From Escherichia coli (lineage in GTDB: Bacteria; Pseudomonadota; Gammaproteobacteria; Enterobacterales; Enterobacteriaceae): a stretch of 64,000 bases of DNA. Shown here piece after piece: positions 1 to 39,137 of the stretch; position 1 is the stretch's first letter; every line of letters starts with the position of its first letter. Both the position numbers and the translations under genes were made by a program. The DNA lies in NCBI RefSeq assembly GCF_044324875.1, contig NZ_CP172185.1; one strand, 5' to 3'. Below the pieces are notes generated by a model. It was not told the DNA's origin and did no database searches. It saw only the letters and a program-made list of their open reading frames with translations.

Positions 1-149
1 GGGTTATTGTGGAAATTCTGAAGAACGTATCTTTCGAATTCCTGCGCCTTTGATTTCAGGGTGAAAATCTTACGAATCCGCCTTCCTCCCGCCCCCTGAG
101 GCCTTACATCAACCTGATAACGTCCGTCTTTGAGTTGCTTAATCGACAT
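1..149 (-). CDS. int: P2-type tyrosine integrase, N-terminal ~49 codons only; gene continues beyond the window start
   Basis: Reverse-strand translation from ATG at 147-149 gives MSIKQLKDGRYQVDVRPQGAGGRRIRKIF..., matching the P2 Int N-terminus as I recall it (MAIKKLDDGRYEVDIRP...). Confidence 0.8.
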   Translation of the reverse strand, partial: MSIKQLKDGRYQVDVRPQGAGGRRIRKIFTLKSKAQEFERYVLQNFHNN

Positions 150-218
150 GATCAGCACCTCCGACGGATAAACCTGTTAACCCCTGCTTACTGAACGCCG
201 CCCGTTCAATATACAGCG

Positions 219-560
219 TCAGCCAGCATTGCGGCCTGATTGGGGTGATTTTTGGGTATTGCGGGTTGAAACCTGATCGTCCTCCGACTGCGTGGAGCCA
301 TCAAGAGAGAGAGCCGGGGCGATCTGACCGGCAACAGGTAGCGTCTTATCTTTGATTAGCCAGAACATATATTTTTCAAACCGATCCACTTGAAGGACGG
401 CCTCAACAATCTTTGCTCTGGCGATCTTTTGCCCTGACTCATAATTCCTGACAGTTGCCAGAGATAACCCTGTAATATCAGCAAATTGCTTTTGAGTTAG
501 CCCTTCCGTCTTGCGTATCAAACGCAACTTTTTCGCATAGTCTATTGACAAGATACTCAT
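219..560 (-). CDS. HTH (XRE-type) immunity repressor, in the position of P2 C
   Basis: 113 aa with a helix-turn-helix segment (QKQFADITGLSLATVRNYESGQ); sits between int and the divergent early operon. Confidence 0.75.
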   Translation of the reverse strand: MSILSIDYAKKLRLIRKTEGLTQKQFADITGLSLATVRNYESGQKIARAKIVEAVLQVDRFEKYMFWLIKDKTLPVAGQIAPALSLDGSTQSEDDQVSTRNTQKSPQSGRNAG

Positions 561-663
561 TTGGGGATTAATCTCCTACAAAAGATAACCGTACGATTAT
601 CTTTACAAGTCATCAAAAATCATCAAAAGGCGCAACAAGCGCACCAATGCAAGAGGATAACAA
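561..663. promoter_or_regulatory. Divergent promoter/operator region between repressor and early operon
   Basis: Palindrome AAAGATAA-N8-TTATCTTT at 581-604 and direct repeats ATCAAAA at 611-628, between divergent genes. Confidence 0.45.
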
Positions 664-1185
664 ATGCGGGAGATTATTGCCGACAAAGAGTTATCTGGCG
701 CTCAACCGGTTCAGGATGATGGCGCGGACAATGAATTCATTGAAGCTGCCAACGACAACGAACACCTGGAAACCAAAACCAGACCGTCCTACAAAAAGGG
801 CGCAACCCTACGACTGGACGGCCCAGTCGCAGGACTTGTGTCACTGGAAAAAGGGGCTGCCTATCTGGGGGTAACAAAATCTGCGCTACGCGCCGCCATT
901 CAGCGCGGGCAGATGCCGGGTCACAAAACGCGCTCAAATCCCGAAGATGAAAAGTCAGACGGTACATGGTGGTTTAACGCCAAAGCCTGGGACGAACTAG
1001 CCGACGAACTACTGGAGTGCGAACCGCCAGAGTGGCACAACTGGAAAAGCTACTGGACGTACGACCGCAAGAAAAGAAAGTTTTCACCGGCAAACAAGGA
1101 GGACTGCCAGACCGTTAAAGGTAAGCAGGTTTACTCCCCCAGAGTTTCAAAACTGGAGCAACTCAAAAACAACCAGCCCGGCTAA
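664..1185 (+). CDS. First early-operon protein with central HTH; Cox/Apl-like position but longer (173 aa)
   Basis: ORF with AGAGGA RBS; HTH-like segment LEKGAAYLGVTKSALRAAIQRG. Confidence 0.5.
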   Translation: MREIIADKELSGAQPVQDDGADNEFIEAANDNEHLETKTRPSYKKGATLRLDGPVAGLVSLEKGAAYLGVTKSALRAAIQRGQMPGHKTRSNPEDEKSDGTWWFNAKAWDELADELLECEPPEWHNWKSYWTYDRKKRKFSPANKEDCQTVKGKQVYSPRVSKLEQLKNNQPG

Positions 1186-1193
1186 ACACGAAA

Positions 1194-1400
1194 ATGACCA
1201 GCAATATCATCAATGCCGTTTTGAACATTATATTCCTGGAATTAGGCGTAGTAGTGATTTATCTGCTTGGCAAGCTAACAGGACAAAAAGAACGTTTTAT
1301 TGTCCTCAACGTTCATTACGTCGCAGCTTATTCTAAAGGGCTTTTTCCAATAGTTGTTGGCGCGGGACTTACAGCGTTTGTCATCTGGCTCATCAGGTAG
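1194..1400 (+). CDS. Small hydrophobic protein (68 aa)
   Basis: ORF with two hydrophobic stretches; no clear RBS. Confidence 0.3.
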   Translation: MTSNIINAVLNIIFLELGVVVIYLLGKLTGQKERFIVLNVHYVAAYSKGLFPIVVGAGLTAFVIWLIR

Positions 1401-1682
1401 AGGCACACAACGTAATCATTCGTAGCTATATTTCCGCAATAGTATTCAAGTAAAGGAAGACAACAACATGAAACCAAGACAAAGATTAACCTCCAGAAGT
1501 AGTGACGCATTGCACTTTAAAGCAAAAGACATAATAGCCACAACAAAGGTAGGAGCATAAGTCTATATACACTTTCAGAATTTCTATCTGGAGAGAACAT
1601 TAAAAACGGAAGAGGAAGCCAATGAGTATTTGTTATTCATGAAAGATTGCATAGAAGGAAAAATAAGCGCAGGAGATAAATA

Positions 1683-1991
1683 ATGCGAAAACATTATTCA
1701 CAGCCACATTTCCGCAACAGTGCACCACGCAGCAATAACCGCTGGAGCCTGCGCGAAACACACGCAACGCCGGGCGGTCATGCTGTAAAACAGACTGGTC
1801 AACACACCTGGCTGATTGAGCAGGCCGGACTCGTGATCCACAGATGCCACCGCAATCCGTTTACCGGAAACCGCATTTTTGCACTGAGCAGCGGCGACAA
1901 TCAGTTCGGACAGGATTTCACACTGCACGAAGCCTTGCGAACTGCCGACCGCTTAATCGAGGGGCGCAGCTTTCAGCATACCGACTACTAA
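1683..1991 (+). CDS. Hypothetical early phage protein
   Basis: 102-aa ORF, RBS GCAGGAG upstream, same strand as early operon. Confidence 0.45.
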   Translation: MRKHYSQPHFRNSAPRSNNRWSLRETHATPGGHAVKQTGQHTWLIEQAGLVIHRCHRNPFTGNRIFALSSGDNQFGQDFTLHEALRTADRLIEGRSFQHTDY

Positions 1992-2029
1992 GGCAAAAGG
2001 AGTCTTAATAAGACAGAAGAGGCAGCAAG

Positions 2030-2272
2030 ATGAAAAGAGCCTATAAAGAACTCATTAACGACGCGCTTCAGAATTACCATTACGGACTTACAAGCCGTGG
2101 CACTAACGGTGACGCTGTTTCACTTGCAGCACTGACTACAGCAATCAAGGGCCTGACCTGTTGCGCCTTTGGTTCCGGAGATAATGAAGCTCTGACGGAA
2201 TTACAGGCCATTAATAAAGACCTGTCTGAAGGAAACGTAATAACCCCCTTTGTAATTCAGGAGGAAGCATGA
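2030..2272 (+). CDS. Hypothetical early phage protein
   Basis: 80-aa ORF; stop overlaps next start (ATGA). Confidence 0.5.
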   Translation: MKRAYKELINDALQNYHYGLTSRGTNGDAVSLAALTTAIKGLTCCAFGSGDNEALTELQAINKDLSEGNVITPFVIQEEA

Positions 2273-2394
2273 GCGTATTTATGTCATGGTTAATTCTTAT
2301 CCTTGCCATTATTTGCGCTGTGGGGATTATGCGGGTAATTAACAGCATTAACACCATTGAATCGTTATTTACTGGCGATAAGCGCCGTAAATAA
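2269..2394 (+). CDS. Small membrane peptide (41 aa)
   Basis: GGAGG RBS 6 nt upstream; MSVFMSWLILILAIICAVGIM hydrophobic helix; start overlaps the previous stop. Confidence 0.4.
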   Translation: MSVFMSWLILILAIICAVGIMRVINSINTIESLFTGDKRRK

Positions 2395-2474
2395 ACAGGC
2401 GTTTAACACCAGAAACAACCAGAAACATCCGCTCACGCGGAGGGGTTGACCCGCTCAAAAAGGAGAAATCAGGA

Positions 2475-2768
2475 ATGCTTAATAATAAAAAAAACCGAAT
2501 CATTGATAACAGTGAACAGGTCAACAAAATAATCGAAGGCACAAACAAATTAATTAAGAAAAAAAACAAACTAAGCCGTGAATTAATGGAACATCCGGAA
2601 GAAATATTATTAGCCATGATGCACCAGACAGAAGCGATAGCCATCGCCCTTGCCGTGCAGGCGCTTTCTGAGTTCCGGGAAGAAAACATCAGGCTGGCTC
2701 AGGAGCTGAAAAACCTCAGACGTCAGCTTCAGAGCACTGAGGCTGGCACGTCATCACGAATACACTGA
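2475..2768 (+). CDS. Hypothetical protein, Lys-rich N-terminus
   Basis: 97-aa ORF with AAGGAG RBS; AT-rich patch. Confidence 0.5.
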   Translation: MLNNKKNRIIDNSEQVNKIIEGTNKLIKKKNKLSRELMEHPEEILLAMMHQTEAIAIALAVQALSEFREENIRLAQELKNLRRQLQSTEAGTSSRIH

Positions 2769-2778
2769 GGGCCACACC

Positions 2779-2988
2779 ATGACTGCAATTCTGAGAAGAC
2801 GCAATAAAACGCTTTTTACCGATACATCCGGGATGGAATACGAAGTGGAAAGCAGTGTCATCGCCACCACCACCCGATGCCCGGCAGGTGACGAACTGAT
2901 TTACGTCCACCTGACGGACGGGTCACAGATAACCGTCCTGACAGAGTCATGGCGCGAACTCGAGATAATAAGCGAGGTAAGAACATGA
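2779..2988 (+). CDS. Hypothetical early phage protein
   Basis: 69-aa ORF translationally coupled to the next gene (ATGA). Confidence 0.45.
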   Translation: MTAILRRRNKTLFTDTSGMEYEVESSVIATTTRCPAGDELIYVHLTDGSQITVLTESWRELEIISEVRT

Positions 2989-3197
2989 GCAGCAAACACG
3001 ATACCAACGCACGCAGACCAGGCAAAGAGGCGCGTCACCATATCGCCGTAATGCGCAACCTGCTTATGAGTGAAATCGACGATTTTGTGGCAGGCCTGGG
3101 GCAACCGGGCGAACCAGCAACACCAGGCCAGATACACAGGGAATTACGCCGCCGCGTGGAAAACGTCGTGGATTACGTCATAAACCCGAACGACTGA
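2985..3197 (+). CDS. Hypothetical early phage protein
   Basis: 70-aa ORF with GAGG RBS. Confidence 0.45.
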   Translation: MSSKHDTNARRPGKEARHHIAVMRNLLMSEIDDFVAGLGQPGEPATPGQIHRELRRRVENVVDYVINPND

Positions 3198-3236
3198 CGG
3201 GAACATGGCGAGCGTCAGATGACACACGCAGGGCAC

Positions 3237-3719
3237 TTATCGGGAAAAACCGATCGTAATGGCAGCCATCATCTTTTCAGCGAAAGAGAGAGATTCACGA
3301 TGACTGATATTCAGAGACATACAGGCTTTGTTGTACGCCACATTTTCCATGCATTCCAGGACAGGAGAGTCATGCATCTCAAGCTCTGGAAGGCGTGCCA
3401 GCAGAGCTTCCGTACTGAGGAGGGCGCTTTTGGTAATCAACTCATTGTAGCGATGGGCATGCTCACTCGCCGCCTGCGCACGTTGCCCGAAACGACATAT
3501 GAAATTACAGGCTCCGAGAACCACCACCACTGCCCCAAGCACCCAGCCGAAATGCCAGCCGGCTACGATGAACGCACCCGCCGCAAGGATCAAAATGTTG
3601 ATGATCGCATCAAGGCGACGATTGAATACCGCCGCGATGCGCTCCAGCCAGTAGCTGTACCAGAGACGGAACATGACCTCATCCCGTTCTCTCGATTTTT
3701 TACGTTGGTTGTTTTGCAT
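3237..3719 (-). CDS. Antisense-oriented two-TM membrane protein (160 aa); candidate moron
   Basis: Basic N-terminus (RKKSRER), two adjacent hydrophobic helices (IINILILAAGAFIVAGW / WVLGAVVVVLGACNFI), GAGGGA RBS; a competing plus-strand ORF 3219-3854 overlaps it. Confidence 0.4.
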   Translation of the reverse strand: MQNNQRKKSRERDEVMFRLWYSYWLERIAAVFNRRLDAIINILILAAGAFIVAGWHFGWVLGAVVVVLGACNFICRFGQRAQAASEHAHRYNELITKSALLSTEALLARLPELEMHDSPVLECMENVAYNKACMSLNISHRESLSFAEKMMAAITIGFSR

Positions 3720-3953
3720 GGTGTTTTATCCCTCATCGTCATCGCTCTGCCCCTAATCAGCGCAGAGTGCAGGGTAACCTGGCTCGTGGAATTTTTGCAG
3801 CCAGACATCTTTACCCCCGGGCGTGTTGAACAAAGTGTCCGCCAGATCCACTGAACGGCGGATTCATCAATGCTAACACGCCCTTCTTTTCCGGTTGAAG
3901 GCGAAAAAACCGGACCATTACCCCGACACAAAACAGAACAACGGAGAACAACT

Positions 3954-4508
3954 ATGCCCGCACTTAAACCTATGGGTGTATCAGGTGTACCACCGAAGCA
4001 TGTCAGAGCCTGGACACAACAGGAAGATGCTCTACTGGTCGGTTTATACCCCTCCCACACCGTACCAGAACTGACAAAACACTTTCAGAGAACCGGGCCA
4101 GCAATACGAAGCCGCATCCGTCTTTTGCTCTCTCAGGGGGTTATCCACACCAAACAACCCCCCCTGAATACAAAAGAACTCAACACGCTCATCAGGAATC
4201 GCCACACAAAAACCATCCGGGAACTCGCGAATGAACTGGGGCGCTCGACATCCACGGTGGGACTGAACCTGAGAAAAAGAGGGTACCGGTTCAGGAAATA
4301 CGGGGAACTCCACCACAGAGCCAGATACAGCGATCACCTGGTGGAGTTGGTAACTGAACTGCGCGATGAACAGGGGATGACATTCAGCGAAATCAGAAAG
4401 TACATCCGGGACATGGCCGGGATATCCCTTAAAAGATGGGTCCTCGCCCGGCTTTACGCACGATATACCGCCGCTGACACCGTGCTTTGCGAACTGCTAC
4501 CGGACTGA
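3954..4508 (+). CDS. DNA-binding protein with three tandem HTH-like repeats
   Basis: GGAGA RBS before ATG at 3954; three repeated helix-turn-helix-like segments. Confidence 0.55.
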   Translation: MPALKPMGVSGVPPKHVRAWTQQEDALLVGLYPSHTVPELTKHFQRTGPAIRSRIRLLLSQGVIHTKQPPLNTKELNTLIRNRHTKTIRELANELGRSTSTVGLNLRKRGYRFRKYGELHHRARYSDHLVELVTELRDEQGMTFSEIRKYIRDMAGISLKRWVLARLYARYTAADTVLCELLPD

Positions 4509-4828
4509 GTAACCACTATGCACACACAAAAAAACCGCTTGCCATGCCGCAATCAGTCAGGTTACATTTCCGCTGCACCTCATAAAACGGGTGCCGGGAT
4601 TGCAACCCCCGCTGACAACTACAGCGCACAACCGCGCCAGCGGTTTTTTTGTGCGTACCGTATCGCCACGTCTTTTTCGCGCCAGAATTATGGCGGGGCG
4701 TATGGGGCCGACTTCGGTCGGGCCGGTTTCTGTAGTTGCCGGTGGTTGCAACCCTGTACGTCTCGCCACCCAGAATTGCAACCTCTGGATGGTGAGTTTT
4801 CAAAACTTGCAACTACAGAGGCCACACC

Positions 4829-5053
4829 ATGGCAAACCGCAAACAACAGCGCGCATACGCTGCGCGTCGTCACATCCAGACTGAAATCAACCGCAGACTT
4901 TTCCGCGCATTCCGCGTCGCGCATATCATGCACATCAATATGCTGCATGAGCGCAGCCACGCACTGTCAAACATGTATTCCGCCGCTGTATTCAGCTACC
5001 TGGCGGATGACCTGCGCGAGCTGCAGGACCTCATTAACCAGCACCACCACTAA
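4829..5053 (+). CDS. Small hypothetical protein (74 aa)
   Basis: ORF immediately after a TTGCAAC repeat cluster; weak RBS. Confidence 0.3.
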   Translation: MANRKQQRAYAARRHIQTEINRRLFRAFRVAHIMHINMLHERSHALSNMYSAAVFSYLADDLRELQDLINQHHH

Positions 5054-5121
5054 TCAACATCCCGGAGCCATCCCGCCCCCGTACGCGGGAGGCTTCCGCA
5101 CGTCCGTTTCCGGAGGTTCTC

Positions 5122-5535
5122 ATGAAGAGCGTTAAGGGACTTTCAGATATTCAGGATTTTTTTAACTGGATGTGGGCGGTGGATCCACGCCTCGCTTCCC
5201 GTCTCAATGACCTGCACGACTATTACCGCCGCGCCTGTAAACAGGCAGCCCGCAGCGCTGCCACATACGGGGATTTTTCCTTCACCGTTGACGACCGTTA
5301 CCGCGTGGATGTCAGAGACCAGAACCACAGCCTGGAGCTGGGCCTGTTCCACATCAACGGGTGCGACAGCAGCGTTATCAGCTGGTCATCGTCAGAAATG
5401 GTGCTCGTTCTGGAAATGACCACCCACAGCGTGGTCGTGAAAGGGATTAAAACAGCAGAAGACTTTATCGCTGAATACCAGCGCCTTCTTGTGCTGTACC
5501 GGGCTGCATTTCAGAAGGCAACAGCAGGGGAGTAA
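5122..5535 (+). CDS. Hypothetical protein upstream of the replication gene
   Basis: 137-aa ORF with GGAGG RBS. Confidence 0.5.
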   Translation: MKSVKGLSDIQDFFNWMWAVDPRLASRLNDLHDYYRRACKQAARSAATYGDFSFTVDDRYRVDVRDQNHSLELGLFHINGCDSSVISWSSSEMVLVLEMTTHSVVVKGIKTAEDFIAEYQRLLVLYRAAFQKATAGE

Positions 5536-5540
5536 GCGGA

Positions 5541-8051
5541 ATGAGCCATCACCACACGCACCTGGCGTACCCGTGGAACGCCCCGCTGCCGGTTATTGAT
5601 CCTGAGACATTCGGCAGAGCATTACCGCAGAAGCCAACCGCATTACAACGGGCAATCCGTGACTACCTCACCGAAGACATTCGCACTGAGGCCCGGCTGG
5701 ATGAAGAAACCGTGGCCTTCCTGACAACCACGGACAAAGGTAAGCAAATTAATTCACACCTTCACCGGGACGAAGAGCGGCAGATAAGGCTGGATAAGCT
5801 GGCACGACACAGACGCGAAAATCCGCCAACGGCGGTATCGGAGGCGATAGCCGAACTTCGCACCCTGCCCTCGTTTCTTGCCAGTGTGTTGATCCGTGAT
5901 CTGGCACGACTGAACCGGAAACAGCAAAGTGCCCGCAGTGAAGGTGTAAAAAACAACAGCGCATACGTGGCCGATAATTTCGTTCGCCGTGGACTGCGTG
6001 CGCGCCTGAAACGTATTGAAAGGGTTAACGACCGCTTTGCAACGCCGGCATTCAAAACCACCGTCGTGCGCCATCGCCTTGAAGAACTGCTCACACTGCC
6101 GCAACTCACCCGTGACGAAATCCAGCGCATCGCCACACTGACAGCCCAGGCATTCGCCGCAGAATTTGAACGCATATGTGATGAAGTTCTTGAACGGACA
6201 GGCAAGGATAATGACAGCCCGGTTATCTGGCTGCTGGCCTACCAGAAGGTGGCACGCACAGCCTTAATTCTGGGCATGGTCCCGCCATACTGGCCGGAAC
6301 TCGAAATCAGGCACAACCGACGCACACCGCCGGACCCTGAACGGGTTCCGGGTGCGGTACTGCGCATCACCTGCGCGACCTGGTGGAACAACCAGTTACG
6401 CCACGTCGCCGATCTCTGGCGGGAGGAGTTACTGCGCGCCGCCGGCAGAGTGTCACGTAAACAATCCCCCTATATCAGCCATGAGTCACTACTGGAGTTC
6501 CGCGAGAAGCGCCAGCGCACCTGTGACTTTCTCAAAAGCTGGGATATTGAAAACGAAGACGGCGAGCGCCTGAGTCTGGAGGACGTGTACTGGGCTGGCC
6601 TGGGTAATCCACGCAACCGCCGCAATGAAATGATGGTCTGCGTCAGAGGGATGGAGATGGTGGCCGAATTACGGGCTGACGTCGCATTCTTCATCACAGT
6701 AACCACCCCTTCCCGCTTTCACAGCGTGAACGAGAACGGCAGCCTGAACCCGAAATACAACGGTGCCACAGTACGAGATGCCAGTGATTATCTGGTTTAC
6801 GACTTCTTCGCAGCCGTAAGAAAAAAAATAAAAAAAGAGGGGCTGGGCTGGTACGGCGTGCGAACCGCTGAGCCACACCATGACGGCACGCCACACTGGC
6901 ATATGCTGGTATTCACTTCCCCGGAGAACGCAGAGCGCATCATCGAAATTATGCGCGAAGCAGCAATTAAATCAGATCGCCACGAACTGGGGGACGATAT
7001 TTCACCGCGCTTTAAATGCGAGAAGATAGACCCGGAAAAAGGCACACCGGCAAGCTATATCGCAACCTATATCGGTAAGAACCTGGACGCCAGCGCTTTC
7101 CACAACAATGATCCGAAAACCGGAAAACCTTACGTTGATGAGGAATCCGGGAAAACCATGGCGGAAACCGTGGAGAACGCCATTGCCTGGGCAAGCCTTC
7201 ACCGCATCCGTCAGTTCCAGTTTTTCGGCATTCCGCCCCGCCAGGTATGGCGTGAACTCCGCCGCCTTGCAAGCCAGATGGAGCGCAACCCGGCATCACC
7301 GAAGCACCTCGATCATGACGATATTGACGCCATTATGGCTGCCGCAGATGTGGGATGTTTTGCCACCTACATCATGAAACAGGGTGGTGTGCTCATTCCG
7401 CGCAACCAGTATCTGGTCCGCACCGCATACGAAACCGCAGACGAAGCCAACGACTACGGTGAATTCCCTCAACGTATCTACGGAATCTGCGCCCCGTCGC
7501 TCGGAGAGCGGTACACCATATGCACCCATCCGGACGAGTGGAAACTGGTTAAAAAAGAAACAATACCAGACAACCGCACGGGCGAGGGTTTTGACCTTCA
7601 GGGCGACCCCGTCGCCCCTTGGACTCGTGGCAATAACTGTCCCCGGGATGAAAAAACAGACAATCACGGACCAGAAAACAGGCAGGACCCCGGACGACTG
7701 ACGCTTCCCGAAGAGAACCTGGAAAGCTGGCTGAATACGTTAAGCAGGGGCGATCGGAGAAAACTGCGTAATCAGATTAAAAATCAGCCGTCGGGCGCAA
7801 AAACCGGACAAAACGACACCACACCGGCATCTGACACCCCTGTAAGGGTGGGGATTGTCGTGCCTGCGGATACCGCGACGGACACGCAAATCGCCCGCGA
7901 ACTTGATGCGCTGGGTGTGCAGTTGCCTGACGCGGCCATCATCTCCGTGCGTAACGGTGCCCGTGTGCGTCTGGATAACGGGGGAACAGCGTACTGGGAT
8001 GAGTCAGCCCGTCACATCATCACAGAGCAGCCAGTGGAGGCGGGAGCATGA
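5541..8051 (+). CDS. A: P2 gpA-like rolling-circle replication initiator (HUH endonuclease)
   Basis: 836 aa; HxH motif context TPHWHMLVF; position and size match the P2 A family. Confidence 0.85.
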   Translation: MSHHHTHLAYPWNAPLPVIDPETFGRALPQKPTALQRAIRDYLTEDIRTEARLDEETVAFLTTTDKGKQINSHLHRDEERQIRLDKLARHRRENPPTAVSEAIAELRTLPSFLASVLIRDLARLNRKQQSARSEGVKNNSAYVADNFVRRGLRARLKRIERVNDRFATPAFKTTVVRHRLEELLTLPQLTRDEIQRIATLTAQAFAAEFERICDEVLERTGKDNDSPVIWLLAYQKVARTALILGMVPPYWPELEIRHNRRTPPDPERVPGAVLRITCATWWNNQLRHVADLWREELLRAAGRVSRKQSPYISHESLLEFREKRQRTCDFLKSWDIENEDGERLSLEDVYWAGLGNPRNRRNEMMVCVRGMEMVAELRADVAFFITVTTPSRFHSVNENGSLNPKYNGATVRDASDYLVYDFFAAVRKKIKKEGLGWYGVRTAEPHHDGTPHWHMLVFTSPENAERIIEIMREAAIKSDRHELGDDISPRFKCEKIDPEKGTPASYIATYIGKNLDASAFHNNDPKTGKPYVDEESGKTMAETVENAIAWASLHRIRQFQFFGIPPRQVWRELRRLASQMERNPASPKHLDHDDIDAIMAAADVGCFATYIMKQGGVLIPRNQYLVRTAYETADEANDYGEFPQRIYGICAPSLGERYTICTHPDEWKLVKKETIPDNRTGEGFDLQGDPVAPWTRGNNCPRDEKTDNHGPENRQDPGRLTLPEENLESWLNTLSRGDRRKLRNQIKNQPSGAKTGQNDTTPASDTPVRVGIVVPADTATDTQIARELDALGVQLPDAAIISVRNGARVRLDNGGTAYWDESARHIITEQPVEAGA

Positions 8052-8479: not shown

Positions 8480-8670
8480 GCAGAATATTACTTTTTCTGC
8501 TGTTTTTCGCGCCATTCGCACAATCAGCCACGCCGAACTGCGTAGCGAAAAAGAGCAACACCGTTGTCATTGTCCAGTGTGATGACGGCACGGTAACAAT
8601 CACCGACTCGAGCAAAGGAAGCGTCATTGTCTGCCGTAAAGAGAAACCCTGTCAGCGAACCGAACTTTGA
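8476..8670 (+). CDS. Small secreted Cys-containing protein (64 aa, GTG start)
   Basis: GGGAGG RBS; signal-peptide-like N-terminus ILLFLLFFAPFAQSA; four Cys in the mature part. Confidence 0.45.
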   Translation: MSRILLFLLFFAPFAQSATPNCVAKKSNTVVIVQCDDGTVTITDSSKGSVIVCRKEKPCQRTEL

Positions 8671-8681
8671 AGGAAAAATAT

Positions 8682-8761
8682 ATGAACAGGAAACAGAAGC
8701 AGGAACTGAAAGGCTTCTTACGTAAAGAAATTGCCAGGCTGGAAGATGTGGAATCTCAGTC
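8682..8761 (+). pseudogene. 5' part of a cargo gene split by the IS insertion
   Basis: AAGGA RBS and ATG at 8682; reading frame runs into the IS end at 8762. Confidence 0.6.
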
Positions 8762-31100: not shown

Positions 31101-31466
31101 CCGCAGCTCACCACCCAGTTCGCGCATTCGCTGAACTTCACGCGCACGGACCTCATTGAGACGCTCAAGTTTGAGGCTCAAATCGTTCATCAGCTTTTTC
31201 TGTTTGTCAGACAGCACGGTTCCGGCGCGCTGAATTTGCTGAAGTGCGCTTAACTGGCGTTGTGCCCGGGCAATGCCGTTTCCGGCCTTGTTTGCAGCCT
31301 CGCGGGCGCGATCAAATGAACGGGCGTGGCGTTCCAGGTTTTTGATCGCACCCTGCGTTCTCTGTATGGAGTCGCCAAGCTGGCCCATCATGCGACGGGC
31401 GTTTTCGGTGGGACGGGTCAGCCTGTCAACAGCGCTGAAGGCGACCCGTATATCAAGCGTTTTCAT
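28155..31466 (-). CDS. T: Tail tape measure protein, P2 gpT-like
   Basis: ~1100 aa, coiled-coil N-terminus, Gly/Ala-rich TM-like middle, Pro/Val-rich C-terminus; start MKTLDI overlaps the E' stop. Confidence 0.85.
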   Translation of the reverse strand: MKTLDIRVAFSAVDRLTRPTENARRMMGQLGDSIQRTQGAIKNLERHARSFDRAREAANKAGNGIARAQRQLSALQQIQRAGTVLSDKQKKLMNDLSLKLERLNEVRAREVQRMRELGGELRRHGIALSGSDNTIQQAIRRTQQYNDQLERERQALARVTQARQQYSRAQETAGKLKTVGLTAVGTAAAGGYAAGRFLQPAVSFGKEMSRVQALTRIDKNSPQFKALREQAIKLGSETQFTAGDAASGQAFLAMAGFTPQAIQAALPGVLDLAMAAGMDLGQTADISSNILTQFGLSADQMDRVGDTLAATFTRTNTDLRSLGETMKYTGPVAASLGLSLEQAAAMTGVLGSVGIRGSDAGTALRASLSRLVDPPKAAAMALKELGVETQDAYGNMRRMENILNELYQATRKYGNAAQVSFFRAIAGQESYVSLMNLVTAAGENNLPRLTQEIELATGELNHTARVMADNLDGDLKSLNSAWEGLRIRVADLVDGPLRSVTQSFTRVIAKVTALAQAHPELTKQLLIAGGVLLAAVAAMGALSLATGVLMGPLAKLRLGFALLTGTSGLGRALPLLTQLRGVLGGPLGGIGGWRVLFVGITSGAGRFAALLGVVAGRLRGVQAGLGALRGGLLAAFTSPGGALISLGRGIGILALRLSGLPALWGMVSGAVGALGGALGFLLSPVGLVVATLVGAAVLIWRHWDQLKAVVGGFLSGLWQGLTPLREAVAPLGPLFEYVGQTIGRVWQWFVDLFAPVSTTKDELDKCTEAGRTFGQKVGEFISNLVTGPVTLLIDSLTRVLEKLGLIPSAVERARKKAEELKQKELLNEKAAMLLADVNVINPPKKDEDKKDGEKPKGGQPPLTGENTGTMRRLNKIVDNTGGLLDEAKQAKKRAGPGDIIFKNLPEALAVRGEWKEERFNRAASLLPGSVSEPPVRLPQVPSVSVPSLPPLPAPPPVSVSPLISTTANVSPVVKPVVSVNNVPVIPPVVRPVLSGNITPVVPPVIKPVMTHDVMPTFSPLMTPVMAATSRPVVEAVRQPISPASPRPRQSEPAPWGLTGELHIHLHDVHTQNPRELAKMVGDAVRAEMERRIRQTVGSFRDRD

Positions 31467-31979
31467 GCTCTGCGTTCCCGCTGCGAAGGGCCGCCCGCTC
31501 ACGCCAGGCGACCACCTCGCCGGGATCCATCAGGAAGATTTCAGCGGGAGACCAGTTGAAAATAACGGCGATATCCGCCACAAAGTCTTCAATATGCTCA
31601 AAGGGCACGACGGTTATCAGCCTGCCGTCGCCGCCACGCTCTTCCCGCCAGAGTCCTGACCGGCCAAAAAATTAACCGCCACCCCGCACAGCTGAATAAA
31701 ATCAGCGGACCCCATGCGCTTAAGCAGAACCTCGTCCAGTCGCGGCGAAGTGACGCGCGGGAGTAACTCAAACATCGCGTCCGTTTTCATGTTCAGCACG
31801 TCAAGCAGTGACAGCCCGCGCAGTGAACCGGCCTGCTGTACAGCAGGCGTGATTTCCACATACGTGATTTTTTTGTTACCGAGCACAAGGGGCGTTTTCA
31901 GCGTCACGCCGCGCTCACTGGTCACGTCCGCCGCATCAGCACCGTCAGTAACAGGGGCAACAACCGGATTTTCTTTCAT
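31454..31979 (-). CDS. E: Tail assembly chaperones gpE (31617-31979) and frameshift extension E' (to 31454)
   Basis: E is a 120-aa ORF; a -1 frame is open from the slippery site to a stop at 31454 that overlaps the T start. Confidence 0.7.
31665..31671 (-). other. Programmed -1 ribosomal frameshift site (T TTT TTG) for E/E'
   Basis: Heptamer TTTTTTG in X_XXY_YYZ register within E, 15 codons before the E stop. Confidence 0.65.
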
Positions 31980-32029
31980 GCATAAAACCTCAAATCAGGG
32001 GGCGACGCCGCGCGCCGCCGTGGGAAACA

Positions 32030-32548
32030 TTAACCACCAAGACCAATCGCCGAGCGCACGCGGTCCGGGAAGACGTTTTTGCCGTCCTTGCGTTCGATGT
32101 GGTTCAGTAAATCAATCTCCAGCACCGGACGGTCGTTAATGCTGAGTTTGTAGTAGGTACTCCTGACCGCATAGGTGTGAGACGTGACCTCACCCTGTTT
32201 TGCCTCCCCCGTATCAATTTCCGTCACGCGGCCGCGAAGCTCAATTTCATACAGGTCGCTCTGCTCTTCATCGTTGTAGTACTCACCGACAAAGCGCAGC
32301 AGCGTACCGTCGATCGTGCCGCCGTACTTAAGGAACAGTTCGCGGGTCGGCCCGCCCATGGTGAAACTCGCATCCAGCGCGCCGTCATCCAGACCAAGGT
32401 CGATATTCACCGCGCCGGCCATACCACCACCGCGATAGGCTTCCGTTTTACGGGTCAGTTTGGGGGGCGTGAAGCCGGTCACCCTGCCAATCTGGTTCAC
32501 CCCGTCAGTAAACAGCGTGAACACCCTGAGATTTTTTGGTACGGCCAT
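32030..32548 (-). CDS. FII: Tail tube protein, P2 gpFII-like
   Basis: 172 aa directly downstream of the sheath gene. Confidence 0.8.
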   Translation of the reverse strand: MAVPKNLRVFTLFTDGVNQIGRVTGFTPPKLTRKTEAYRGGGMAGAVNIDLGLDDGALDASFTMGGPTRELFLKYGGTIDGTLLRFVGEYYNDEEQSDLYEIELRGRVTEIDTGEAKQGEVTSHTYAVRSTYYKLSINDRPVLEIDLLNHIERKDGKNVFPDRVRSAIGLGG

Positions 32549-33831
32549 TAAGCACCTCCAAGCGTCGCAAATGCAGGACCAAAGAATTCATCAGTAAACG
32601 TCTGGTAAAGTTCCATATCCTCAAGCGGCGGAACGGGCGTGTACTTGTAGCGGATACGCACGCGTCCCTGACGAAGTTCCGTGGTGCTGTTATCCACCAC
32701 GTCATACCAGCACTCCGCACCAACGAGACGTCCTGACGTAACCAGCGCATCCAGTTTTGCGCGAATTGCGCTTAACACGTCTTTCACATTAGCAGGGGTC
32801 AGCGGGGCATCAATCGTTTCAAACTGCGCTTCCGCAATGGAATCAGCCAGCACCTGAGCGGTTCGCGTGTACACCTCAAAGATATACGCCTTCGTTTCCG
32901 GCGTACGGTTGCCCCAGAAGCGGAAACCGTTACGGCAAATGATGGTAGTGATTTCCTTGTTGTTGAGATTGTTGGCATCGCTGTCTTCGGACTGAAGGGA
33001 CCAGAACACCGGGCTGGAAATACCCAGCACATTTCTTACCGGCACGTTGGACAGCGATTTATGCCAGCCCTGTTCGTGGTCAATACGTGCACGTAAACCG
33101 CAGGCGTACGCCGCAGCCGGGAAGACCTCATTAGCGCCGGATTTCGGGTTATGGGCGATGAAGTCCGGCCAGACCAGCATAAGTTCGCGCTCGTTAAATC
33201 TGGCGCGGTAGCTGATTGCATCGGCGGGCTTCTTGCAGTTGTGACAGCCCGCGTAGACAAATGCGCGAAGTTTTTCTGCAATTACACACAGGGATTTTGT
33301 GACAGCTTCAGTATCCAGTCCGGGCGCTGCGATGATGCGCGGACGGTAACCGATGGCATCATCCTGTTCAGCTATCAGAAGTGCATACATACCGGTATAA
33401 TTACCGTCGCCATCCGTGCCACCAATGACATACTGGTCCTGCGTTTTGTGTGGGTATACAGGATGTGCATCTTCAGACTCATCAATACCAAAAAATGCCC
33501 TGTCTTCAGGATCCAGATGACCGAATGATGTAACTCCTGTATCCGGGGCGCCCTGAGAACTGGCATCAGGAACGCGCACCACAATCACCTTCGTGCTCAC
33601 CTGGTCGGCGACAGCCTTAAGCGATTTGTAAAGCGTCCCCTTTGTGCCGGCCTTACCCAGCACATCACTGACGCGGGTCAGCAGTGTGGGTTTGTTCAGC
33701 GGGAACAGAGTTTCATCCGCGTCATCTGCCGTAGCCACAATACCAATAACACTGGAATCCACATCATTAATGGCGGTGGCAAGGCCGGTACTTTCCCTTA
33801 CGCGCGCACCATGAAAGCGTGTTTCACTCAT
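32548..33831 (-). CDS. FI: Tail sheath protein, P2 gpFI-like
   Basis: Start MSETRFHGARV resembles the recalled P2 FI start MSDYHHGVQV; ~427 aa. Confidence 0.85.
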   Translation of the reverse strand: MSETRFHGARVRESTGLATAINDVDSSVIGIVATADDADETLFPLNKPTLLTRVSDVLGKAGTKGTLYKSLKAVADQVSTKVIVVRVPDASSQGAPDTGVTSFGHLDPEDRAFFGIDESEDAHPVYPHKTQDQYVIGGTDGDGNYTGMYALLIAEQDDAIGYRPRIIAAPGLDTEAVTKSLCVIAEKLRAFVYAGCHNCKKPADAISYRARFNERELMLVWPDFIAHNPKSGANEVFPAAAYACGLRARIDHEQGWHKSLSNVPVRNVLGISSPVFWSLQSEDSDANNLNNKEITTIICRNGFRFWGNRTPETKAYIFEVYTRTAQVLADSIAEAQFETIDAPLTPANVKDVLSAIRAKLDALVTSGRLVGAECWYDVVDNSTTELRQGRVRIRYKYTPVPPLEDMELYQTFTDEFFGPAFATLGGA

Positions 33832-33992
33832 ATGTTTCACCCTTGTCTGGCTGGTTGATTTTGCGTAATCATTACCCACACACGCGGTAATCTCACCCCT
33901 TTGATGTTGTCTCCTGACAGCGACAACAAAACAGCCATTCAACGCCGCTGCGGTGCATGAAACCATTACAGAACGCACCAGGAGAGAACACC

Positions 33993-35084
33993 ATGAAAGA
34001 GCTGTCAGTTACCGTTCCGTCACCGGATATCGACATCACCATCAACAACAACACACTGGCAAACCTCACAGAGCGACTCATGACGCTGACCCTGACGGAT
34101 AACCGGGCCTTTGAGGCAGACCGCGTCACCCTCACCCTTGACGATACGGACGGGCAGTTACAGTTGCCACCACGTGGCGCACGCCTGAGAGTGATGATTG
34201 GCTGGCGAGGAGAATCACTGGTTAACAAGGGCACCTACGTCGTTGATGAGGTTGCGTGGGAAGGACCTCCAGATAAACTGATCATCACCGCCAGCAGCGC
34301 AGATTTTCGGGAAGAGTTCAACGTGAGGCGGGAGGTATCCTGGCACGACGTGACCGTAAAACAGGTTGTGTCAGCCATCGCTCACCGCTACGGCCTGAAG
34401 ACACAGATAAGCGAAATCCTCATGGATATCGAAATTGACCACGCTGACCAGACCGAAGAGAGCGATATATCCTTCCTGACCCGCATGGCTGAAATGCTGG
34501 GTGCGATTGCCACCGTAAAAAACGGCAGCCTGTTATTCATTCTGCCGGGTGGCGGAACCGGGCCGGACGGAAAAGCCCTGCCTTCGTTCGCCATTACCCG
34601 CAGCAGCGGCGACAGTCACCGCTTTCGCATTGCTGACCGTGATGCGTATACGGGGGTCCGGGCGCACTGGCTCGATCTGAAGTTCGGGCACAAGAAAAAA
34701 GTGAACGTGAAGCGACGCAGGGAAGCCGGGAAACAGAAACAGGAGAAGAGCAGCAGCCGGGAGGGTGATTACATGGAAGGCGCGGAAGGGAACGTCTACG
34801 TTCTGCGCAGGACTTACCAGAATGAAGAAACCGCACGACGTGCAGCTGCGGCAAAGTGGCAGGAGTTACAGCGGGGAGCAGCGGCATTCTCCATCACTCT
34901 GGCACGGGGTCGTGCCGACCTGTATCCCGAAATGCACGGCAGGGTAACAGGTTTTAAAAGCGAGGTGGACAATCAGGACTGGATTATTGCCAGGGTGGAG
35001 CACATCATAGATGAAAGCGGCTTCACCACACAACTGGAGCTGGAAGCGAAAATCCCCGAATGGATAGCAGATTCAGGCGGATAA
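33993..35084 (+). CDS. D: Tail protein, P2 gpD-like (late control D family)
   Basis: GGAGAG RBS before ATG at 33993; ~363 aa; followed by ogr as in P2. Confidence 0.75.
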   Translation: MKELSVTVPSPDIDITINNNTLANLTERLMTLTLTDNRAFEADRVTLTLDDTDGQLQLPPRGARLRVMIGWRGESLVNKGTYVVDEVAWEGPPDKLIITASSADFREEFNVRREVSWHDVTVKQVVSAIAHRYGLKTQISEILMDIEIDHADQTEESDISFLTRMAEMLGAIATVKNGSLLFILPGGGTGPDGKALPSFAITRSSGDSHRFRIADRDAYTGVRAHWLDLKFGHKKKVNVKRRREAGKQKQEKSSSREGDYMEGAEGNVYVLRRTYQNEETARRAAAAKWQELQRGAAAFSITLARGRADLYPEMHGRVTGFKSEVDNQDWIIARVEHIIDESGFTTQLELEAKIPEWIADSGG

Positions 35085-35127: not shown

Positions 35128-35379
35128 ATGTTCCGTTGTCCCCTATGCGGTGCATCCGCACGTATCCGCACCAGTCGCAATGAAAATGATTCAGGCACAG
35201 TTCGCCTGAAGTACTACCAGTGCAATAACCTCGAATGCGGGATCGGCTTTACCACACTGGAGGGTTTTAACAAATTCACATCAAAACGCGCCCCGTCGCC
35301 GCAGGGTACAGAGCGGATACCGTGGGAAGATTTTCCGGGATCTCACAGGGGGAATGCTCAGATGAATCTTGATATTTAA
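35128..35379 (+). CDS. ogr: Ogr/Delta-family zinc-finger late-gene activator
   Basis: MFRCPLCGASARIRTSR...YYQCNNLECG resembles the recalled P2 Ogr MFHCPLC...HQCQNVNC. Confidence 0.8.
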   Translation: MFRCPLCGASARIRTSRNENDSGTVRLKYYQCNNLECGIGFTTLEGFNKFTSKRAPSPQGTERIPWEDFPGSHRGNAQMNLDI

Positions 35380-35521
35380 GAACAATAATCAGGTTGAGAG
35401 GACATCATAAGGCAAGTAGATTAACGGCAGATACTTTCCCGCAACCACGGGCAAGTATTTAATTATCCATGATGAAATATGACCTAAATTGTTTTTTGCC
35501 CGCCGGAAAGCGGGCATTTTT

Positions 35522-35737
35522 TTATTCTTTTGTGGTTATGGGGTCATCAGGAACCACGTGCAGATTATATTTTTGTTTTTTTGGCGTTCCTCCGGCAGCA
35601 ACGAGTTCATCAATAAGACACTGACACGCCTGAACATCCCGGGCATGTCTTAGTTTCACCTTTATTGATTTAACCTTATCCTCACCGGAGGAGAAATGCA
35701 GTTCAATCTCAATATCGTTTCTTCGGAACAATCTCAT
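35522..35737 (-). CDS. Small hypothetical protein (71 aa); the only intact copy of a thrice-repeated gene
   Basis: AGGGGGG RBS; decayed paralogues at ~36840-36905 and ~37500-37560; palindromic AT-rich upstream region. Confidence 0.4.
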   Translation of the reverse strand: MRLFRRNDIEIELHFSSGEDKVKSIKVKLRHARDVQACQCLIDELVAAGGTPKKQKYNLHVVPDDPITTKE

Positions 35738-36094
35738 ACGCCCCCCTGAATATATCAGAAATGCTAGTATCGAAAAATGAGAAAACAGTTAGACAGGAGA
35801 AACATATTAACACAAATCATTTATACCTATAGATGAAATTATAATTTCATTCATGAATATGATAGATAACTATATTGTGAACAAAATGAAAAATGGCTAA
35901 ATTAAAAATGGGCATGGAGGAATGCCCGGTTATCAATATAATGTGACGTAGATCATTGTTTTGCCCGCCGGAGAGCGGGCATTTTTTTTGCGCCTGCCAT
36001 CGAGGCGCCTTCCCTGGCGCACACAAAGCAGCCCTGATTTTCCATGAAAACTTCAGGGTTGAGCTGCGGGCACAAAGTGAGTAGATTAGCTACG

Positions 36095-36189
36095 GGTACC
36101 TCCCCCTGACAACAGGAAGGGTGTCCATTATCCATGATATACAAACGAAAAGTCTTGTTTTTTGCCCGCCGAAGCGCGGGCATTTTTTT
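36095..36189 (+). ncRNA. Candidate sRNA unit S1 (promoter plus intrinsic terminator)
   Basis: -35 TTGAGC (36059-36064), 17-bp spacer, -10 TAGATT (36082-36087), then ~95 nt with a CCTTCC/GGAAGG stem-loop ending in the hairpin and T-run. Confidence 0.35.
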
Positions 36190-36315
36190 ATGCATCAGAC
36201 AAGATACAGCCCACCCCAACTGACACCTGAAATATTGCCGCAACAAAAAGAAACAGTTAAATTACGCGCGGGTGCCTTTCGGCTGATGGCCGGAGGGAAA
36301 ACCTGAAGGCCGGAT

Positions 36316-36549
36316 GTGGAAAGGCCCCGGAAAACATTTCTGTTTAACCGAGGCCCTAACCGCATTACCTTGACAAGTGAAAGGTTAGCGCCTCTCCGGA
36401 AAAGGAGCAAGTGCTATGTCGCAAAAATCGCTTACGGCCATCACGTTCTGCGTGACGGCAATCCTCATCATCTGGATATTGCACGGTTCGCTGTGCGAAA
36501 TACGGATGAGCTTCTGGGGAGCGGAGTTTGCGGCGTTCTTACAATGTAA
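36316..36549 (+). CDS. mok-like overlapping reading frame of the hok-like locus
   Basis: 77-aa ORF starting ~100 nt upstream of and overlapping the hok-like ORF in another frame. Confidence 0.4.
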   Translation: MERPRKTFLFNRGPNRITLTSERLAPLRKRSKCYVAKIAYGHHVLRDGNPHHLDIARFAVRNTDELLGSGVCGVLTM

Positions 36550-36556
36550 GAAGTAA
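36416..36556 (+). CDS. Hok/Gef-family type I toxin (46 aa)
   Basis: MSQKSLTAITFCVTAILIIWILHGSLCEIRMSFWGAEFAAFLQCKK: TM helix then SLCEIR and E(V/F)AAF motifs as in plasmid R1 Hok; AAGGAG RBS. Confidence 0.7.
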   Translation: MSQKSLTAITFCVTAILIIWILHGSLCEIRMSFWGAEFAAFLQCKK

Positions 36557-36645
36557 GGAAACCGCGACGGGGGAGCAATCCCCCGTCAATCGGTTGCCAG
36601 GGTAAGGTCGATAAGGCACCCTATCTCACAGACATGAACAACAAA

Positions 36646-36676
36646 CCCGCAGCATAAAAACTGCGGGTTTTCTTTT
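36646..36676 (+). terminator. Intrinsic terminator of the hok-like transcript
   Basis: Hairpin CCCGCAG-CATAAAAA-CTGCGGG followed by TTTTCTTTTT. Confidence 0.6.
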
Positions 36677-37265
36677 TGGTGTCCTCACCGACTTGAAACA
36701 GTGATCAGACTATAAGACAAAGCCCGCAATGTTGCGGGCTTACTCTACCTCTCGAAAATGTGGTCACTGCGTGGACATACGCTGATACAAATCCTTTATA
36801 TCAATAAATTAAATCTTTGTTTTTTTCATCAACAATGATTTAACCTTATCCTCACCGGAGGAGAAATGCAGTTCAATCTCAATATCGTTTCTGTGGAACA
36901 GCCTCATAAGACAACCTCCTGAATTCATCAGAAACACAGTCAACTGAAAACCAGAAAGCAGACAAACAGTGGACACACATTAATACAAATCATTTATACC
37001 TATAGATGAAATTGCAGTTTCATCTATAACATGACAGGTAACAATATTGTGAAAAAACTCAAAACTCGTTAGATTAAAGACGGACAGAGCAATGCTACTT
37101 TATCAATAACATGTAACCTGTACTTCCTTATTTTGCCCGCCGAAGCACGGGCATTTTTTTTGCGCCTGCCATCGAGGCGCCTTCCCTGGCGCACACAAAG
37201 CAGCCCTGATTTTCCATGAAAACTTCAGGGTTGAGCCAAAAGCACAAAGACAGTAGATTAACCAC

Positions 37266-37359
37266 GGGTGCCTTCCACCTGACAACAGGAAGGGTGTCCA
37301 GTATCAATGACAGACAACTCACATTGCTGTTTTGCCCGCCGGAAAGCGGGCATTTTTTT
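37266..37359 (+). ncRNA. Candidate sRNA unit S2
   Basis: Same -35/17 bp/-10 (TTGAGC...TAGATT at 37231/37254) and terminator architecture as S1. Confidence 0.3.
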
Positions 37360-37914
37360 ATTCTTTTGTGGTTATTGGGTCATCAGGAACAACATGCAGA
37401 TTATGCTTTGATTTTTTTGGTGTTATTACAGCAGCAACGAGTTTATTAATAAGACACTGACATGCCTGAACATCCCTGACATATCATAATTTCACTTTAT
37501 TTTTTTAGCTTGTCCTTTCTGGAGCAGAAATATCTCAACATCGTTTCTGTGGAACAACCTCATTTGCCCCTGAATGTATCATAAATATCAGCATCGGAAA
37601 ACCAACAGCAATACAGAAGAAACATGTTAATGCAAATCACTTATACCTATAGATGAAATTACAGTTTTGTTCATAAATATGATAAGTAACTATATTGTGA
37701 ATAAAATGAAAACTAGCTAAATTAAACGTGGGCATGGTGGAATGCCTCGTAATCAATAATACATGATCCGTACTTCCTTGTTTTGCCCGCCGGAAAGCGG
37801 GCATTTTTTTGGCGGTTACCATCGCCTCACCTTCCTGGTTCACATGAAGCAACCCTGATTTTCCATGAAAACTTCAGGGTTGAGACAAAAGCACAAAGAC
37901 AGTAGATTAACCAC

Positions 37915-38007
37915 GGGTACCTTCCACCTGACAACAGGAAGGCTGTCCAGTATCAATGACAGACAACTCACATTGCTGTTTTGCCCGCCGGAAAGCGGGC
38001 TTTTTTT
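37915..38007 (+). ncRNA. Candidate sRNA unit S3
   Basis: -35 TTGAGA 37879, -10 TAGATT 37902, terminator hairpin 37983-38000. Confidence 0.3.
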
Positions 38008-38112
38008 GGCAGTTATCATAGCCGCACCTTCCTGGCACATATGAAGCAACCCTGATTTTCCATGAAAACTTCAGGGTTGAGACAAAAGCACAAAAACAGT
38101 AGATTAACCACG

Positions 38113-38208
38113 GGTGCCTGCCACCTGACAACAGGAAGGGGTGTCCATTATCCATGATATACAAACGAAAAGTCTTGTCTTTTGCCCGCCAAAGCGCGGG
38201 CATTTTTT
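38113..38208 (+). ncRNA. Candidate sRNA unit S4
   Basis: -35 TTGAGA 38077, -10 TAGATT 38100, terminator hairpin 38184-38201. Confidence 0.3.
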
Positions 38209-38420
38209 TATGCATCAGACAAGATACAGCCCACCCCAACTGACACCTGAAATATTGCCGCAACAAAAAGAAACGGGTGCCTTTCGGCTGATGGCCGGAG
38301 GGAAAACCTGAAGGCCGGATGTGGAAAGGCCCCGGAAAACATCTGTGTTTAACCGAGGCCTGACCCTTCCTACCGTGACAAGTGGAAGGTTAGCGCCTCT
38401 TTGTAAAAGGAGCAAGCGCT

Positions 38421-38561
38421 ATACCGCAAAAAACGATTATTGTTGGCATTTTATGCCTGACAATAACCCTGGTCATCTGGATGGTCCACGATTCGTTATG
38501 TGAATTCAGCTTTGATATCTGGGGAGCGCGTTTTGCGGCGTTCTTGCAGTGTAAACCGTAA
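38421..38561 (+). pseudogene. Degenerate second hok-like copy
   Basis: Start codon ATG replaced by ATA, LCEIR changed to LCEFSF; the matching mok-like frame (38321-38503) is truncated. Confidence 0.6.
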
Positions 38562-38711
38562 GAAACCGCAGCGGGGGAGAAATTCCCCGCTATCCGGTTG
38601 TTGGGGTGGGCCGATATGGCGCCCTTTCCCTGTAGAGACAAAACAAAAAACCAGATTTGCCCGCCATTGAGAGGGCTTTTTTGTCACCCTCACCAGTGAG
38701 GGCATCATCAT

Positions 38712-38939
38712 TCAGAGGCGCGTAAGCCACCCGGCGTTAACATCCTGCCTGTCAACCCTGGCCGCAGAGTCTGAACGGCAGGTACCGGAAGGAGTACCAA
38801 AAACATCCCTGACAAGTTCCGCCACCTTCCCGATATCATCAGGTGTCACATTCCTCACCTCGGCCGTGATCCGTGGCGTACCATCATCGTTAACAAGAGT
38901 GGCTTTAAAGCTGGTGCGAAGGGAAAACAACATCAACAT
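38712..38939 (-). CDS. Hypothetical small protein (75 aa)
   Basis: ORF only; between the repeat array and serS. Confidence 0.25.
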   Translation of the reverse strand: MLMLFSLRTSFKATLVNDDGTPRITAEVRNVTPDDIGKVAELVRDVFGTPSGTCRSDSAARVDRQDVNAGWLTRL

Positions 38940-39094
38940 CCCCTCCCTTTGGTTCGTTGCACTGACGGCACGACACCATCAGGAAAAAGAAAAGCCCACA
39001 ACGTCAGTATTGTGGACTTTTTTCTTCAAAGATGGACATTATCTGGACACATGAAAATAAAATCCATTTATTTTCATATAGTTAAGTACCATGC

Positions 39095-39117
39095 AAAAGC
39101 GCCCGCAGGCGCTTTTT
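39095..39117. terminator. Intrinsic terminator downstream of serS
   Basis: AAAAGCGCCCGCAGGCGCTTTTT hairpin, symmetric A/T flanks. Confidence 0.6.
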
Positions 39118-39137
39118 AGATTCAGAAAAATTGGGTA

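Follow-up and report, generated by a model that had tools for sequence, protein, structure and literature searches.

Where does the P2-like prophage that lies beside serS in Escherichia coli end, and does the repeat array found between its last backbone gene, ogr, and serS belong to the phage or to the chromosome? The question arises from a stretch of 64,000 nucleotides (nt) of the E. coli contig NZ_CP172185.1 (GCF_044324875.1), here called the window, position 1 of which is only the window edge. Read from right to left starting at serS, the window contains a 3.7-kb repeat array with hok (35392-39094), ogr, P2-type late genes and then early genes. In E. coli K-12 dmsA starts 238 bp past serS, and it is not found in the window. 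An earlier note on this DNA had given the K-12 order lrp-ftsK-lolA-rarA-serS-dmsABC, which proved correct against K-12, and its statement that a hok array and a P2-like prophage replace dmsA beside serS was borne out by the gene content, with dmsA outside the window. It had also placed the right end of the prophage at about 35400-35500 and had taken the array as either chromosomal flank or co-integrated cargo.

We are highly confident that the element is a P2-like (Peduoviridae, P88-related) temperate phage, present as one integrated unit that runs from a left end outside the window to position 39109. As part of the same reading, the 3.7-kb array is very probably a component of the phage genome and occupies a slot for variable cargo that separates ogr from the attachment site. 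The features of the window are collected in Table 1.

The attachment core lies in the serS terminator

A 15-bp direct repeat, CCTGCGGGCGCTTTT, marks both ends of the insertion; it corresponds to the 3' half of the serS terminator. The empty site of K-12 reads serS...AAAAAGCGCCTGCGGGCGCTTTTTTTGTCTCCC...dmsA and contains this core once; the K-12 sequence after the serS stop codon runs ...TCTAAAAAGCGCCTGCGGGCGCTTTTTTTGTCTCCC.... At the serS-side junction the window and K-12 agree from the serS stop codon through CCTGCGGGCGCTTTT, a stretch of 46 nt, and differ beyond. The dmsA-side junction was read from strains 135 and NRZ14408, whose prophages are 99.9-100% identical to that of the window over the shared part (99.9% over window 1-8761). 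Both are K-12-identical from the same 15 nt on, into dmsA, which starts ≈1.14 kb left of window position 1, just past the integrase gene int. The second core copy lies 934-948 nt left of position 1 (NRZ14408), between int and dmsA. Alignment to a reference, the check that the earlier note had proposed, thus defined the attachment core from the K-12 empty site and located dmsA through near-identical genomes.

Within the window the core occurs once, at 39095, and no further copy was found between ogr and this position, even when as many as three mismatches were tolerated. P2-type integrases bind direct arm repeats with the consensus tgTGGaCa that flank the core left and right (PMC3448106). On the ogr side, the repeats TGTGGAC, ATGGACA, and CTGGACA are located at 39013-39048, on the array side of the core and 50-80 nt from it, and the int-side arm has two TGGAC repeats. 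These repeats fit the P2-type arm consensus and are regarded as putative arm sites. The 220 nt past ogr contain no TGGAC, the window-wide rate being 0.28 per 200 nt. Because core and arm repeats are missing after ogr and host identity stops at 39109, the right end of the prophage has to be moved from the 35400-35500 proposed earlier to the phage/host junction at 39095-39109.

The hairpin of the serS terminator is intact after the insertion, with its T-run shortened (TTTT then GCATGG), and dmsA keeps its entire upstream and promoter region. In the proposed mechanism the phage tyrosine integrase would recombine the 15-bp core of the phage attachment site (attP) with the identical stretch in the rho-independent terminator of serS, and the insertion would leave serS and dmsA ≈40 kb apart. 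From what is known of the family, Int and IHF would carry out the integration and Cox would direct excision. On the excised circle, where the array-side arm would be joined to the int side, attP would read ...CATGCAAAAGCGCCCGCAGGAGATTTAACGG....

The array moves with the phage

Strain SCU-115 carries the same phage (NZ_CP054368.1, ≈2820000-2855800), with 98.5% identity over window 1-14000 and a near-identical integrase gene, but at another location, between rraA and zapB, which are adjacent genes in K-12. In this strain, ogr is followed by a shorter array and then by the identical arm (99.6%). The zapB-side junction, ...CATGCAAAAGCGCCCGCAGG|TGCCTTTTTTCTGCG, consists of phage core followed by host sequence, and the rraA-side junction, ...AAAGGCACCGCAAGG|AGATTTAACGG, of host core-like sequence joined to the int-side arm; in K-12 the rraA-zapB site reads AAAGGCACCGCAAGGTGCCTTTTTT. 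Given these hybrid junctions, one circle with the arrangement int...ogr-array-arm must therefore have integrated into an imperfect secondary site. The secondary site in SCU-115 matches the phage core at only ≈10 of 15 positions.

The array is thus co-mobile with the phage. Since it moves together with the phage to rraA-zapB, it is phage cargo, located between ogr and attP. Units of the array are also found after ogr in two further strains: CS5L has the order ogr-units-open reading frame (ORF) beside copA, and 23CRST011 has ogr-units-hicAB beside ihfA.

Distribution among E. coli genomes

The survey covered 5426 complete E. coli genomes. An uninterrupted serS-dmsA interval is present in 5076 of them, and the array is absent from all of these empty sites. 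The serS and dmsA halves are apart in ≈349 genomes (≈6%), with the alignments breaking at the core, and the serS terminator is a recurrent attachment site of P2-type phages. The arm beside the core (38600-39094) was detected in 28 genomes. The small RNA (sRNA)-like units of the array, described below, occur in 30 of the 5426 genomes (≈0.5%) and always in this phage lineage; many of the isolates bearing them came from chickens. The complete structure from gene D through ogr and the array to serS recurs at 99.4-99.9% identity in 24 complete genomes that are independent of one another and come from several countries and hosts.

Three database entries presented as phage genomes (ON470599.1, ON470623.1, and PV468777.1) include dmsABC and ycaC and are wrongly delimited predictions of prophages at the serS-dmsA site. 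The entries vB_EcoM-569R5 and Entero_P88(23) were considered as packaged genomes and rejected, since these records are prophage predictions with wrong limits, which take in dmsABC; they were kept as evidence for the serS-dmsA site only.

Alternative explanations for the position of the array

If the prophage ended just after ogr, at about 35400-35500, the array would be older chromosomal or island DNA beside serS. Its base composition agrees with this, as the array has a GC content of 0.44-0.46 and is richer in AT than the late genes (GC 0.55-0.62), and RefSeq does not annotate it as phage. Yet neither core nor arm repeats follow ogr, the sequence identical to the host stops at 39109 and not at 35500, and the array, missing from every one of the empty sites and confined to this phage lineage, travels with the phage in SCU-115. 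We regard an end after ogr as very unlikely. Of the two origins that the earlier note had considered for the array, co-integrated cargo was upheld by its movement with the phage in SCU-115, and chromosomal flank was abandoned in view of the 5076 empty sites without it.

The array and its arm could also represent an integrative element of their own, or what is left of a previous P2-like prophage, inserted in tandem at the same attachment site and only co-resident with the phage. Attachment sites often hold tandem arrays, other P2-like phages do use this site, and the array holds degenerate duplicated pieces and a pseudogenised hok. There is, however, neither a second integrase nor an internal core copy between the two parts, while the arm repeats are found only distal to the array. 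The occurrence of a single hok or of hicAB in the same slot of relatives marks a regular cargo position, and the SCU-115 junctions at the imperfect site require a single circle with int...ogr-array-arm. Two separate insertions, which the earlier note had named as an outcome that would overturn its reading, are at odds with SCU-115, where array and prophage stand together at rraA-zapB; a tandem element is unlikely. The other such outcome, a misassembled contig, gains some plausibility from the repeat-rich nature of the array, but it is excluded for practical purposes because the arrangement recurs nearly unchanged in the 24 independent complete genomes.

Several points weigh against reading array and prophage as one phage genome. 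The window lacks its own left junction, which is taken from near-identical prophages of other strains and is to that extent presumptive. No virion-derived genome of the exact lineage is at hand, and packaging of the array is deduced from the second-site integration; the closest deposited phages (P88-like, Xuanwuvirus relatives, and Chuche) show ≈77% identity over <30% of the late region. The copy in the window, which bears an insertion sequence (IS) of the IS21 family, has a size of ≈40 kb, at or above that of known relatives (31-38 kb), and may no longer be viable. For the hok/sok loci, the matches to the Rfam sok family RF01794 reach 46 and 48 bits (46 bits for locus 1), below the gathering score of 59.

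Two hok/sok-type loci in the array

The array contains two hok/sok-type loci. The intact hok ORF of locus 1 matches the Pfam domain HOK_GEF (PF01848; 29 bits vs. a cut-off of 22) and PHROG 251 (E = 8.5e-22). It is overlapped by a mok-like ORF at 36316-36549, and the locus has a promoter-like TTGCCG-17-TAAATT element just upstream. In the minimum-free-energy fold of the locus 1 mRNA, base pairing joins the 5' sequence GGGUGCCUUUCGGCU to the 3' end (z = -8.3). Locus 2 has ATA in place of ATG and, compared with locus 1, lacks a stretch of 15 nt that includes the -10 box. It has kept a strong antisense promoter-like site at 38463-38436 (10/12 match), and this site was found in locus 2 only; the second hok may act as an orphan donor of Sok. 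The likely role of hok/sok here is that of a putative addiction or phage-exclusion module, which would stabilise the prophage or exclude other phages.

A family of sRNA-like units

The array has nine copies of a GC-rich terminator, eight of which close units of common architecture. Each unit begins with a promoter-like element (TTGAGN or TTGTGA, 17 nt, and TAGATT or TAAATT, that is TTGNGN-17-TA(G/A)ATT) followed by ≈7 nt to a G. The 5' hairpin comes in three unrelated sequence versions, and after it there is a single-stranded stretch with UAUC(A/C)AU, a variable segment of 20-30 nt, and the shared terminator. Across the eight units there is no variation in the hexamers, the ATC.AT stretch, or the terminator; the spacers vary. 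The -10 box of the promoter and the initial 9-10 transcribed bases are common to the A-type units and the hok mRNA. From this architecture the eight units look like unannotated genes for sRNAs of 80-96 nt that would be expressed from their own promoters. TGGAC motifs inside the A-type units were considered as relics of attachment arms and rejected, as 7 copies in 3.5 kb vs. ≈5 expected is no enrichment.

An Rfam search at a permissive E-value gave no match of any unit at the gathering score, only chance-level similarities to RyhB, AgvB, Hrs1, and leader families (22-25 bits, E 0.1-0.5). In IMG/VR, the exact shared terminator was found in three contigs of the same lineage, and a degenerate version of it retrieved 30 unrelated gene terminators, none with the unit architecture. 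The independent variants of the unit are too few for covariation analysis. It is possible, although we do not hold it to be probable, that the units are an undescribed family of phage sRNAs, independently transcribed from an expandable array and interleaved with hok/sok. They could regulate transcripts of the host or of competitor phages, or modulate the activation of hok, perhaps with the decayed second hok as the Sok donor.

The array of SCU-115 is without a 1172-nt segment that carries the first hok, and 1172 nt is the repeat spacing of the array. Because the missing segment has the length of the repeat spacing, copy number appears to change by recombination between repeats, and the array would have grown and shrunk by recombination between its own repeats.

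A 71-aa ORF of the array is accompanied by two truncated or degenerate copies at ≈36809-36907 and 37330-37563, and a 75-aa ORF lies at the far end; searches with Pfam and PADLOC returned nothing for either ORF. Palindromes (e.g., TAGATGAAATTATAATTTCATTCAT) were seen at 35800-35850, 36985-37030, and 37640-37680, in each copy between the divergent 71-aa ORF and a B-type unit. They look like operators and are regarded as putative.

The prophage backbone and its surroundings

The late genes have the P2 complement and arrangement, Q P / O N M L ... V W J I H G / FI FII E T U D / ogr, as judged from PHROG matches for portal, terminases, scaffold, capsid, fibre, tape measure, sheath, and D and, for the order, from the RefSeq annotation of a near-identical prophage. 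The int-C/cox switch region and the gpA-like gene are also present, with the integrase gene only partly inside the window.

Table 1. Features of the prophage, its cargo region, and the adjoining chromosome in the 64,000-nt window (NZ_CP172185.1).
Feature	Position	Strand	Basis or remark
P2-type tyrosine integrase gene, 5' end, cut by window edge	1-149	minus	Window 1-60 = L006 6001-6060; int annotated at L006 5154-6149
C-type immunity repressor, helix-turn-helix protein	219-560	minus	RefSeq annotation of 99.9%-identical prophage
Cox-family excisionase and switch protein	664-1185	plus	RefSeq annotation of near-identical prophage
Replication endonuclease, gpA-like	5541-8051	plus	PHROG 91, E = 2.5e-241
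IS21-family insertion sequence, ISEc12-like, istA + istB	8762-11400	minus	Pfam IstB_IS21 and rve/Mu-transposase domains; breakpoints from alignment to strain 135
Head and packaging module	13312-19062	both strands	PHROGs 68, 5751, 73, 70, and 74
Portal	13312-14367	minus	
Large terminase	14367-16118	minus	
Scaffold, major capsid, small terminase	16132-19062	plus	
Lysis, baseplate, tail fibre, tape measure, sheath, tube, and gpD-like late genes, P2 order	19087-35084		RefSeq annotation of near-identical prophage; PHROGs 28, 23, 52, and 988
Tape measure	28155-31502	minus	
ogr, Ogr/Delta zinc-finger late-gene activator, last backbone gene	35128-35379	plus	Pfam Ogr_Delta PF04606, 52 bits vs. cut-off 26
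Eight paralogous sRNA-like units	within 35394-38212 (35394-35525, 35875-35991, 36059-36192, 37047-37163, 37231-37361, 37695-37812, 37880-38009, 38077-38212)	plus	
71-aa ORF, function unassigned	35522-35737	minus	PHROG 14142
hok/sok-type locus 1	36269-36630	plus	Intact hok ORF 36416-36556
hok/sok-type locus 2, likely pseudogene	38275-38625	plus	
75-aa ORF beside attachment arm	38712-38939	minus	Hypothetical in CS5L at same position
Attachment-site arm, ogr side, putative; three direct TGGAC repeats at 39013, 39033, and 39044	38990-39094	plus	Repeat scan; P2-type consensus
Attachment core AAAAGCGCCCGCAGG, reverse complement of CCTGCGGGCGCTTTT	39095-39109	plus	K-12 empty site vs. both junctions
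serS	39138-40430	minus	Chromosomal flank

The IS21 element sits in a small early ORF downstream of the gpA-like gene and is not part of the phage backbone. The strain 135 prophage has none, and in NRZ14408 it occupies a different position. From core to core the prophage measures ≈40.0 kb in the window genome and ≈37.4 kb without the IS element. Accessory ORFs are found between the gpA-like gene and the portal gene at 11849-12250 and 12541-13245, with no match in Pfam or PADLOC. They lie within window 11401-13300, a position that we take to be the known defence hotspot of P2. The tape-measure gene is one intact ORF of 1115 aa here; the annotations of the otherwise near-identical prophages in strains 135, SCU-115, and CS5L show it as pseudogene fragments. 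The GC content of the array (above) and that of the late genes (window 17000-31000) lie on either side of the ≈0.51 of the chromosomal flank, a contrast in composition which suggests different origins for backbone and cargo.

Beyond serS the chromosome continues with rarA, lolA, ftsK, lrp, trxB, cydDC, aat, infA, tRNA-Ser, and clpA. From serS on this stretch is colinear with strain 135, and rarA-serS is also colinear with K-12. The alignment to strain 135 breaks and overlaps at window 44188-44264, in the ftsK linker, and the ftsK ORF is shorter here (1303 aa from a TTG start vs. 1368 aa), a difference that suggests a variable repeat length in the linker.

Comparison with known systems

A close parallel is the P88-like prophage of E. 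coli ST131 (e.g., strain MNCRE44), which uses the same serS terminator target and has a core, AGCGCCTGCGGGCGCTTT, that contains the 15-bp core found here. It is inserted in the same orientation, with int beside dmsA and ogr beside serS, and it has a related integrase (81% nt identity to ST131-type prophage entries in the database) and a homologous arm with GTCCA repeats. Its order is serS-arm-hok-ogr...int-dmsA, with hok in the same slot between ogr and the arm. The ST131 prophage has ≈640 bp with a single hok between ogr and serS, whereas the window has 3.7 kb with eight units, two hok loci, and extra ORFs, and at the nucleotide level the two sets of late genes show no more than a distant relationship.

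Phage P2 likewise has a tyrosine integrase transcribed toward attP with ogr on the other side of attP, tgTGGaCa-type arm repeats, and a short core in intergenic terminator-like sequence, and it also uses imperfect secondary sites. Its core and target are different, namely the 3' end of cyaR instead of the serS terminator. To our knowledge, P2 itself carries no cargo between ogr and attP. Among its relatives, the isolated phage Chuche has the order D-ogr-hok-com/methyltransferase-[att]-int. Chuche and the P88, Xuanwuvirus, and Gemsvirus relatives resemble the window in having a Hok ("MokW-like") gene right downstream of ogr, followed by variable cargo, attP, and int; they differ in the cargo, which is com/methyltransferase or TagO-like without sRNA-like units, and in showing 77-84% identity in patches only. 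P2-like prophages at the sRNA genes cyaR and rybB have been listed previously (PMC3032704).

With hok/sok of plasmid R1 and the chromosomal hokA-E, the loci described here share the Hok/Gef domain, the overlapping mok-like frame, a long mRNA with 5'-3' closure, and an Rfam sok-like leader. They differ in being phage-borne, duplicated, and embedded in repeats, with a decayed second copy and Rfam scores below the gathering threshold.

A literature search on serS, dmsA, and prophage found no paper naming the serS-dmsA site. The supplement of a 2026 preprint on P2/P4 hotspots mentions neither this site nor its core, and the published surveys of P2-type hotspots that we examined contain no mention of ogr or hok. 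The integration is an ordinary one, a terminator target is a known habit of the P2-type group, and hok is a known kind of cargo, but the cargo region is unusually elaborate. New biology, if there is any, would be confined to the sRNA-like array.

For the annotation of such prophages, stopping at ogr would mislabel 3.7 kb of phage cargo, including a toxin-antitoxin locus, as chromosome. The interval between ogr and attP is a cargo slot, which across the relatives holds hok, hicAB, methylase, or TagO-like genes.

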